The translations under genes and the position numbers were made by a program. DNA of 64,000 bases from Eledone cirrhosa (lineage: Eukaryota): NCBI GenBank assembly GCA_964016885.1, contig OZ024743.1, forward strand, positions 179,986,001 to 180,050,000, read 5' to 3'. The notes below the pieces were generated by a model. That model did no database searches and was not told the DNA's origin. It saw only the letters and a program-made list of their open reading frames with translations. Each line of letters opens with the position of its first letter. The stretch's first letter is position 1. This document shows positions 60,702 to 62,690 of the stretch, one piece after another.

Positions 60702-61131
60702 ATATATATATATAGAGAGAGAGAGGTTATCACATACATAAAATAAAATTAAATTAAATCAATGATACATATATGTGTTGCAACTGTTCACTTTTAAGCT
60801 CAATGAAGAATTAATAAGTTAAAATCAAAAGATCAGAGCATTACATCATAAAACGTGTCTATAGAATCAATCAGATATTAAAATATATACTATTTCTTCC
60901 TCTAATCAGCATAATTAACCATATATATAATCAAATCCAGCAAGCTTTAAGAGTAAATTTTCTAAGTGGGAAATCTCCGACAAATAATTGACCGCAGCCA
61001 GTTCGCGTTAACTCCGTTCCATTATTTATCAAATACTTCGGCCGCATGCAGAATCCGATCAAACATACCGTCAACCGCGCGTAATTAGTAGTAAAATTAA
61101 ACTTCGAAGAAATGCGCACATACCGTAATTA

Positions 61132-61212
61132 TATCTCGACCATGGTTTCTTCCTTGTTTAGGACATCCAAATAATATGGACTGTCCAGAGTCAGGATTTT
61201 CTTCAGGAGACA
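61132..61212 (-). ncRNA. Type I hammerhead ribozyme with extended stem II, intact core
   Basis: TGTCTC-CTGAAGA-aaaTCCT..GGACA.TCCA/TGGA TGTCC..AGGAa-GAAA-CCATGG-TC-GAGATA. Confidence 0.82.
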
Positions 61213-62053
61213 AACTCATAAATAGACATTTAATTTCTCGGACAGATCCCGCCAAATTTAGATTCAAAAATGGCTATGATCGCTATGTAGCTGTGTACCA
61301 GCCAGAGAGAAAGCGTGTGATTGGTCGCTTACGGCGGGTAGGCATGCTGCTAGAAAGCGCAGCCATATATCGCCAAATTTAATCTCAACCGATAGGGAGA
61401 TTATCAAATATAGAGGTTATCACATACATAAAATTAAATTAAATTAATTACGGTATGTGCGCATTTCTTCGAAGTTTAATTTTACTACTAATTACGCGCG
61501 GTTGACGGTATGTTTGATCGGATTCTGCATGCGGCCGAAGTATTTGATAAATAATGGAACGGAGTTAACGCGAACTGGCTGCGGTCAATTATTTGTCGGA
61601 GATTTCCCACTTAGAAAATTTACTCTTAAAGCTTGCTGGATTTGATTATATATATGGTTAATTATGCTGATTAGAGGAAGAAATAGTATATATTTTAATA
61701 TCTGATTGATTCTATAGACACGTTTTATGATGTAATGCTCTGATCTTTTGATTTTAACTTATTAATTCTTCATTGAGCTTAAAAGTGAACAGTTGCAACA
61801 CATATATGTATCATTGATTTAATTTAATTTAATTTTATGTATGTGATAACCTCTATATTTGATAATCTCCCTATCGGTTGAGATTAAATTTGGCGATATA
61901 TGGCTGCGCTTTCTAGCAGCATGCCTACCCGCCGTAAGCGACCAATCACACGCTTTCTCTCTGGCTGGTACACAGCTACATAGCGATCATAGCCATTTTT
62001 GAATCTAAATTTGGCGGGGTCTGTCCGAGAAATTAAATGTCTATTTATGAGTT

Positions 62054-62133
62054 TGTCTCCTGAAGAAAATCCTGACTCTGGACAGTCCATATCATTTGGA
62101 TGTCCTAAACAAGGAAGGAACATGGTCGAGATA
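62054..62133 (+). ncRNA. Second copy of the same hammerhead with a mutated GAAA box
   Basis: GAAACCATGGTC is changed to GGAACATGGTC. Confidence 0.7.
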
Positions 62134-62690
62134 TAATTACGGTATGTGCGCATTTCTTCGAAGTTTAATTTTACTACTAATTACGCGCGGTTGACGGTAT
62201 GTTTGATCGGATTCTGCATGCGGCCGAAGTATTTGATAAATAATGGAACGGAGTTAACGCGAACTGGCTGCGGTCAATTATTTGTCGGAGATTTCCCACT
62301 TAGAAAATTTACTCTTAAAGCTTGCTGGATTTGATTATATATATGGTTAATTATGCTGATTAGAGGAAGAAATAGTATATATTTTAATATCTGATTGATT
62401 CTATAGACACGTTTTATGATATATATATATATATATATATATATATATATATATATATATATATATATATATATATATATATATATATATATATATATAT
62501 ATGTGTGTGTGTGTGTGTGTATATATATAGAGAGAAAGAGAGATATACATATAAGTGTTAAGGTGCAAGTAAATTGCGTCCATAAGTGGTATGCCGAATG
62601 ACCACTCGATGCTCTTGAGGAGCAGAGTATCAATAGTATTAATATATAAGAAAGCAAAGAATCAGTGTTGCATCATATACATATTTAATT

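Follow-up and report, generated by a model that had tools for sequence, protein, structure and literature searches.

The question raised by this locus is how a non-coding unit of some 690 bp came to lie as two outward-facing copies inside a TA repeat. The window (the whole stretch of 64,000 nucleotides of Eledone cirrhosa DNA that was analysed) had been described in an earlier note, which proposed that a ribozyme-processed, possibly circular RNA was copied there by the reverse transcriptase of a PLE. What has held of this proposal is a multi-copy element of retrozyme type, set in (TA)n and copied from two sides. Its added remark that described monomers are usually shorter was overstated, 690 being within the published range of animal retrozyme consensus lengths, 51-972 bp (Li, Clavereau and Pollet, 2026, bioRxiv 10.64898/2026.07.22.740005).

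Inspection of the sequence together with a repeat search shows that the 689/690-bp unit is present as two outward-facing arms, joined head-to-head, within TA/GA repeats. Unit position 1 is here set at window position 61445. Arm B (60722..61447, minus strand) contains unit 375-689 followed by 1-410, which is 726 nt or 1.05 units, and arm A (61445..62423, plus strand) contains unit 1-689 followed by 1-290, which is 979 nt or 1.42 units. This agrees with the earlier description of a minus run of about 1.05 units fused head-to-head to a plus run of about 1.4, the two being different circular permutations. The arms overlap at the head-to-head junction in a 3-nt microhomology (61445..61447). Both 3' ends enter a TA/GA repeat, as had been claimed. 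That of arm B is at a fixed site, called B, and runs into GA/TA repeat, the left side of the target being the TA/GA microsatellite at 60700..60721; that of arm A is at a second fixed site, called A, and the right side of the target is the (TA)42 microsatellite at 62419..62502, with 62419-62423, the last 4 nt of the arm, in common with the TA run. The 5' end of arm A had been placed about 6 nt downstream of the predicted ribozyme cut, and is found 6 nt past it (6-9 nt given the arm overlap). An internal copy of the A-to-B segment, of about 124 nt and the counterpart of the PLE tail, is at 61730..61858 (plus). Between them the arms differ by 4 substitutions and one 1-nt indel, and they have in common rare alleles that are found elsewhere at only one other locus. 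The unit was rightly called non-coding: its longest stop-to-stop frame is 98 aa, in antisense, and has no Pfam match. Two TTTGGCG motifs and a CCAAT box are present at 61885-62025 (+), upstream of the hammerhead, and resemble an internal promoter. No public read or contig bridging the window junction was found in DNA runs X1-X6, which contain the 690-nt family; the inversion is supported by the recurrence of this architecture elsewhere in the assembly, rather than by reads.

The locus is one of many. A search of the genome with the unit gave 2,358 candidates, 40 of which were scored and produced 140 matches, and a pattern consisting of the hammerhead core and stem III matched 2,635 times, compared to once for the reversed control; among the 100 core-pattern matches listed, a few belong to other families. 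Head-to-tail repeats of the unit, with one type I hammerhead each, occur at loci L160, L157 and L141, and ORF-free arrays are 3.5 and about 9 units long. Subfamilies extend down to approximately 70% identity.

Insertion ends were mapped at 131 loci. Removal of 6 segmental duplicates and of arms with less than 84% identity left 173 arms, and the end counts therefore describe 125 of the 131 mapped loci, picked by similarity or exact motif from thousands. The 3' ends are at site A (unit ~290) or site B (~410-414), with a minor site B2 (~360). Site A is about 295 nt past the predicted cut, site B is about 124 nt further on, and each has a short TA match in the unit. A TA run of at least 4 units is found within 30 nt of the 3' end in 159 of the 173 arms. 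There are 53 head-to-head inserts, of which 42 combine A with B, 4 combine A with B2, 5 have A and another end, 1 has B and another end, and 1 has two other ends; none is A+A or B+B. Copying from both sides of a break, as had been proposed, is thus reflected in two different fixed ends in 46 of the 53 inverted inserts, and the same end in none. On the assumption that A and B are chosen independently and equally, the chance of seeing no like pair in 46 is approximately 1e-14 (hand calculation). All 97 exact occurrences of the A motif in the genome were recovered, and A+A inserts could therefore have been detected. By comparison, 53 of the 67 single arms end at A, 11 at B and 3 elsewhere. Sites A and B recur in subfamilies that are about 70% identical: a rough motif count over 42 loci of the divergent subfamilies called 17 pairs, consisting of 15 mixed, no A+A and 2 B-type, the last being read as matches to an internal CA run. 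Ends at site B often show a short (CT)n before the TA run (window 60706-60721, and loci L005, L021, L088, L097 and L120), which suggests slippage at priming.

By motif, there is one type I hammerhead per unit, made up of a CUGAAGA core, a long stem II insert, GAAA, a palindromic CCAUGG and UC, which bears out the earlier assignment of a single type I hammerhead with a palindromic CCATGG stem III. In the minus arm (61131..61212, minus) the core is intact, with a predicted cut between 61138 and 61137; the motif departs from the canonical form by 2 extra nt and by an A.A mismatch in the first pair of stem II. The A.A variant is present at 5 loci. In the plus arm (62054..62134, plus), where the cut would be between 62127 and 62128, the hammerhead is mutated, as had been noticed: A13 is changed to G at 62118 and one stem III C is missing. 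The damage is private to the window locus and may be later than the insertion. Two consecutive units with complete hammerheads, which constitute an 'active' copy for Li et al., are absent in the window, where there is one hammerhead per arm and the plus one is damaged; they are present at other loci, e.g. L160. A check with Rfam covariance models did not recover the motif, as the whole window gave no match at the gathering score, and the 6 matches at E<=10 include no hammerhead family.

The core-like motif is kept in 102 of the 115 passes over the hammerhead site. Stem I is paired in 405 of 424 cells in 106 distinct hammerheads (shuffle mean 387, maximum 394), and stem II in 344 of 395 cells in the 79 copies that lack the young-type insertion (shuffle mean 279, maximum 299), with U-A/G-C swaps at two stem II pairs. 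Both stems exceed all of 500 shuffles, in a test that treats the copies without regard to their relatedness and in which the pattern used to collect them dictated the core. The covariation supports the view that the hammerhead stems are under compensatory selection.

The monomer as a whole folds better than each of 20 shuffles (z -3.9). A rod (z -4.8) of about 250 nt is predicted in the 292 nt that follow the cut, from the cut site to site A, at 62128..62419 (plus) and also in the other passes of the unit; the same region of one divergent copy folds weakly (z -1.7). Across 17 copies, 97% of the cells are paired, 7 of 60 pairs are changed on both sides, and there are many A-U/G-U changes, the structure being derived from the same alignment used to assess its pairing. 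The rod is conserved across subfamilies, with plentiful G-U pairs on the plus strand, and this bias points to an RNA of that strand. There is no signature of RNA editing in the form of an A-to-G excess among private changes (27 A>G vs 36 T>C; 1.03 vs 1.05 per 1000).

If such an RNA were cut by its hammerhead, 5' ends should carry a trace of the cut. The earlier note had suggested comparing copy termini with the cleavage site, and they are indeed enriched there. Among 106 inverted arms, 12 5' ends are at the cut compared to 3.1 expected, the top 20-nt window, and just upstream there are 2 compared to 2.7 expected. In a census of the 47 arms ending exactly at site A, 10 5' ends are within 20 nt downstream of the cut, compared to 1.5 expected. 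In single arms a TA-rich site at 235-254 gathers 13 5' ends (3.0 expected) and the cut gathers 9 (2.0 expected), so that microhomology can account for part of the enrichment. Together with the stem covariation, the 5' ends at the cut give indirect support to ribozyme processing of the RNA. Of the 113 arms that reach the cut, 95 pass beyond it (19 of 27 in the census), and the templates seem to be mixed, some starting at the cut and most running on. The read-through fits circles or uncleaved multimers equally well, and variation within inserts did not separate the two. The plus arm in the window would fit a cleaved RNA copied through a dead second hammerhead.

It could be that the template is solely an uncleaved linear multimer from the tandem arrays, with the same two-ended priming, little or no part for the hammerhead, and no circle. 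We consider this rather unlikely, while giving it serious weight. It would accommodate the 84% read-through at the cut, and tandem arrays are available as possible sources. Imperfect hammerheads have spread, as seen for the A.A variant at its 5 loci, the hammerhead of a PLE is dispensable in vitro (Frangieh et al., 2024, PMC11167929), and only 1 of 9 frog retrozyme dimers tested by Li et al. was cleaved (bioRxiv 10.64898/2026.07.22.740005). However, it has to contend with the sharp upstream edge of the 5'-end enrichment, which is seen also in arm-arm junctions where the TA target has no role, and with compensatory selection on the stems.

The enzyme that copied the RNA has next to be considered. 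The claim that the unit was mobilised into (TA)n with the hallmarks of a PLE agrees with its fixed 3' ends, 5' truncation, inverted arm, one-sided tail and microsatellite target. Arms are 5'-truncated and often exceed one unit (11 of the 47 census arms are longer than this), and inverted 5' arms and a tail on one side only are known from PLEs (Craig et al., 2021, PMC8557442; Arkhipova et al., 2013, PMC3846280). The genome contains young PLE families with long open frames, Hydra-type of 758, 745 and 713 aa and Neptune-like of 775 aa. These clade labels follow motifs, some of them described by Craig et al. (2021, PMC8557442), and not a tree. The (TA)n target fits the Hydra clade, members of which also target (TA)n (PMC8557442), and is not specific to it. 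Hydra-type candidates number 25,000-50,000 per query at first look, with overlap between queries. Hydra-type PLEs appear to be massively amplified in this genome; few families of this type were found in the survey of Craig et al.

The surroundings of the insert are rich in related elements. A broken, 5'-truncated Hydra-type PLE occupies 56953-60412 (-), with its own hammerhead near 57085, and its relatives with 758-aa open frames are abundant; it was rejected as a parent, the hammerhead being different and there being no homology to the unit. The terminal part of a Hydra-related PLE pLTR, whose hammerhead core is damaged, is at 60430-60700 (-). It is present in very many copies, with extreme read depth, and is 80-85% identical to a Hydra-type pLTR; the 690-nt insert sits in the TA run adjoining it. 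A broken Neptune-like PLE, with RT and GIY-YIG by Pfam and with relatives that have 775-aa frames, is at 52900-56400 (-). A 14-nt match between the unit (window 61566-61579) and a Neptune-like pLTR (L337:6650-6700) is nonsignificant by BLAST and possibly due to chance. A resemblance of the A-B segment to a Hydra pLTR was also discarded, since in 14 comparisons it did not exceed dinucleotide shuffles (z at most 2.6) and the insert ends were left misaligned. On the other side of the insert, at 62545-62835 (-), is a member of a second hammerhead family, here called element y, with a long stem II, a CATATG stem III and 2,474 candidates in the genome. It has two ends about 77 nt apart, the 15 nt after its cut are common to older subfamilies of the 690-nt unit, and it gives z of about 3 against 4 of 7 units; no element ORF is attached to it in 30 loci.

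A second alternative is that the unit derives from an autonomous PLE that has not been seen, either as its pLTR or as a deletion product, and that the copies are truncated versions of that PLE. Every hallmark of the insertions is PLE-like, several young PLE families are present, and 24 of 57 frog retrozyme families match annotated transposable elements at their termini, nearly all of them PLEs (bioRxiv 10.64898/2026.07.22.740005). We nevertheless think it improbable. Arrays of up to about 9 copies have no ORF between successive units, no autonomous-PLE ORF (RT plus GIY-YIG) was found between repeats, none of the 131 loci scanned has an element ORF continuous with an arm, and the unit has no homology to the ends of the three Hydra-type families and the one Neptune-like family.

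The pairing of ends is not peculiar to the 690-nt unit. In 7 full-length Hydra-type loci, all 5 inverted arms stop about 85-90 nt short of the direct arm by BLAST coordinates, and 13 of 14 second matches of element y stop about 77 nt short. Within the 690-nt family, the two arms of an insert share a template lineage, in that for 30 of 37 pairs the partner falls within the nearest 10% of copies, and the 53 junctions comprise 31 with an overlap, 18 with inserted bases and 4 that are blunt. An arm B that stops at site A, resembling twin priming, is seen 4 times compared to 1.9 expected, which is not significant.

For Penelope it has been proposed that priming occurs once and that the inverted arm then follows by fold-back, or self-priming (Arkhipova et al., 2013, PMC3846280). 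Here this is very unlikely to be the main source of the head-to-head structures, since 46 of the 53 junctions join unrelated positions; moreover, arm B includes the 124-nt A-to-B segment, and both outer ends are at fixed sites in TA. It may have contributed some cases, the two 5' ends being no more than 12 nt apart in 7 of the 53 junctions (about 2 expected), with one clear fold-back, at L082. Finally, two readings can be set aside with little hesitation, namely that the assembly created the inversion, or that two independent insertions happened to meet in the same TA tract: no read crosses the junction and separate insertions do share TA tracts (L233, L201 and L310), but 53 inserts with different junctions obey a single end rule, and the arms in the window are different permutations with 5 differing sites and common rare alleles.

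On the basis of these observations, we think it probable that the window contains a young insert belonging to a non-coding tandem element of 690 nt, present in many copies and with a type I hammerhead predicted in it, and that this insert was copied into a (TA)n break, likely by a PLE enzyme acting in trans. By sequence criteria the unit belongs with the animal non-LTR retrozymes, that is, it would be a non-autonomous PLE. We envisage that the PLE protein would nick both strands of the target, and that each DNA 3' end would pair with the RNA through a short TA match and then prime reverse transcription, one end at A and the other at B of a single RNA species, after which the resulting cDNAs would be joined, mostly via microhomology. 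Part of the template pool would be linear RNA with a 5' end made by the hammerhead; for the rest the enzyme would pass the cut, most simply on a ligated circle, and otherwise on an uncleaved multimer. More tentatively, and with somewhat less than even confidence, we propose that a 690-nt RNA, processed by its hammerhead and circularised, is bound as a single molecule by a PLE dimer, which primes each of the two strands of the TA break at a dedicated site of its own and copies round the circle.

A circular template has been proposed before for PLE hammerheads (Cervera and de la Pena, 2014, PMC4209133). These resemble the present one in forming covarying families and in having a short palindromic stem III suited to cleavage as a dimer; the 690-nt unit differs in its structured stem II insert of about 50 nt, in a first stem II pair that is often U-A instead of G-C, and in being Rfam-negative. 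With the animal non-LTR retrozymes (Cervera and de la Pena, 2020, PMC7229834; bioRxiv 10.64898/2026.07.22.740005) it shares a non-coding tandem unit, one type I hammerhead, dispersed and tandem copies, and coexisting PLEs. Expression and circles have been shown for retrozymes of coral, mussel and axolotl, whereas the 690-nt family is described here from genomic DNA. Insertion ends are not described in the accounts of retrozymes given there, whereas the present mapping covers fixed internal ends, the head-to-head arrangement of arms and the targeting of (TA)n.

EN+ PLEs show 5' truncation, partial tandems, an inverted 5'-truncated arm, an extension at one end and microhomology junctions (Craig et al., 2021, PMC8557442; Arkhipova et al., 2013, PMC3846280), all of which are found here. 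Unlike them, the 690-nt unit has no ORF, its tail is about 124 nt long (about 70 for B2) compared to 30-40 nt, and the one-sided extension is near-obligate in its inverted inserts, being optional in PLEs. A biochemical parallel is the Poseidon protein PAc, for which in vitro work shows both DNA strands being extended from two internal start sites, one on either side of the tail (Frangieh et al., 2024, PMC11167929). The two systems have in common that initiation is downstream of the hammerhead, that two sites bound a tail, that both strands are extended and that a dimer is predicted. In the experiments reported for PAc, the hammerhead is dispensable for insertion, no RNA ends map to its cut, and start sites are alike between strands and lack homology to the target; the 690-nt inserts, by contrast, have a TA match at both sites and use a different site at each end.

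We found no paper on the 690-nt family in the literature on cephalopod retrozymes or two-ended PLE priming, a survey mainly of open-access main texts, and the family may already be catalogued. The class of element is already known; what is added is the count of near-obligate pairing of two ends, the 124-nt tail, and the enrichment of 5' ends at the cut. The mobilisation of animal retrozymes by PLEs has so far rested on co-occurrence and pLTR similarity, and the origin of the tandem and inverted inserts of PLEs is named as open by Craig et al. (PMC8557442). The 690-nt family provides a countable footprint, namely two fixed ends, never the same twice in one insert, and 5' ends at a ribozyme cut, and its unit is a small, defined RNA suitable for in vitro assay. 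If the proposal of a dimer and a circle is correct, retrozyme inserts would be a genomic record of PLE integration, and the PLE tail and the head-to-head inversions would be obligate products of two-ended priming, rather than of self-priming on an antisense template.
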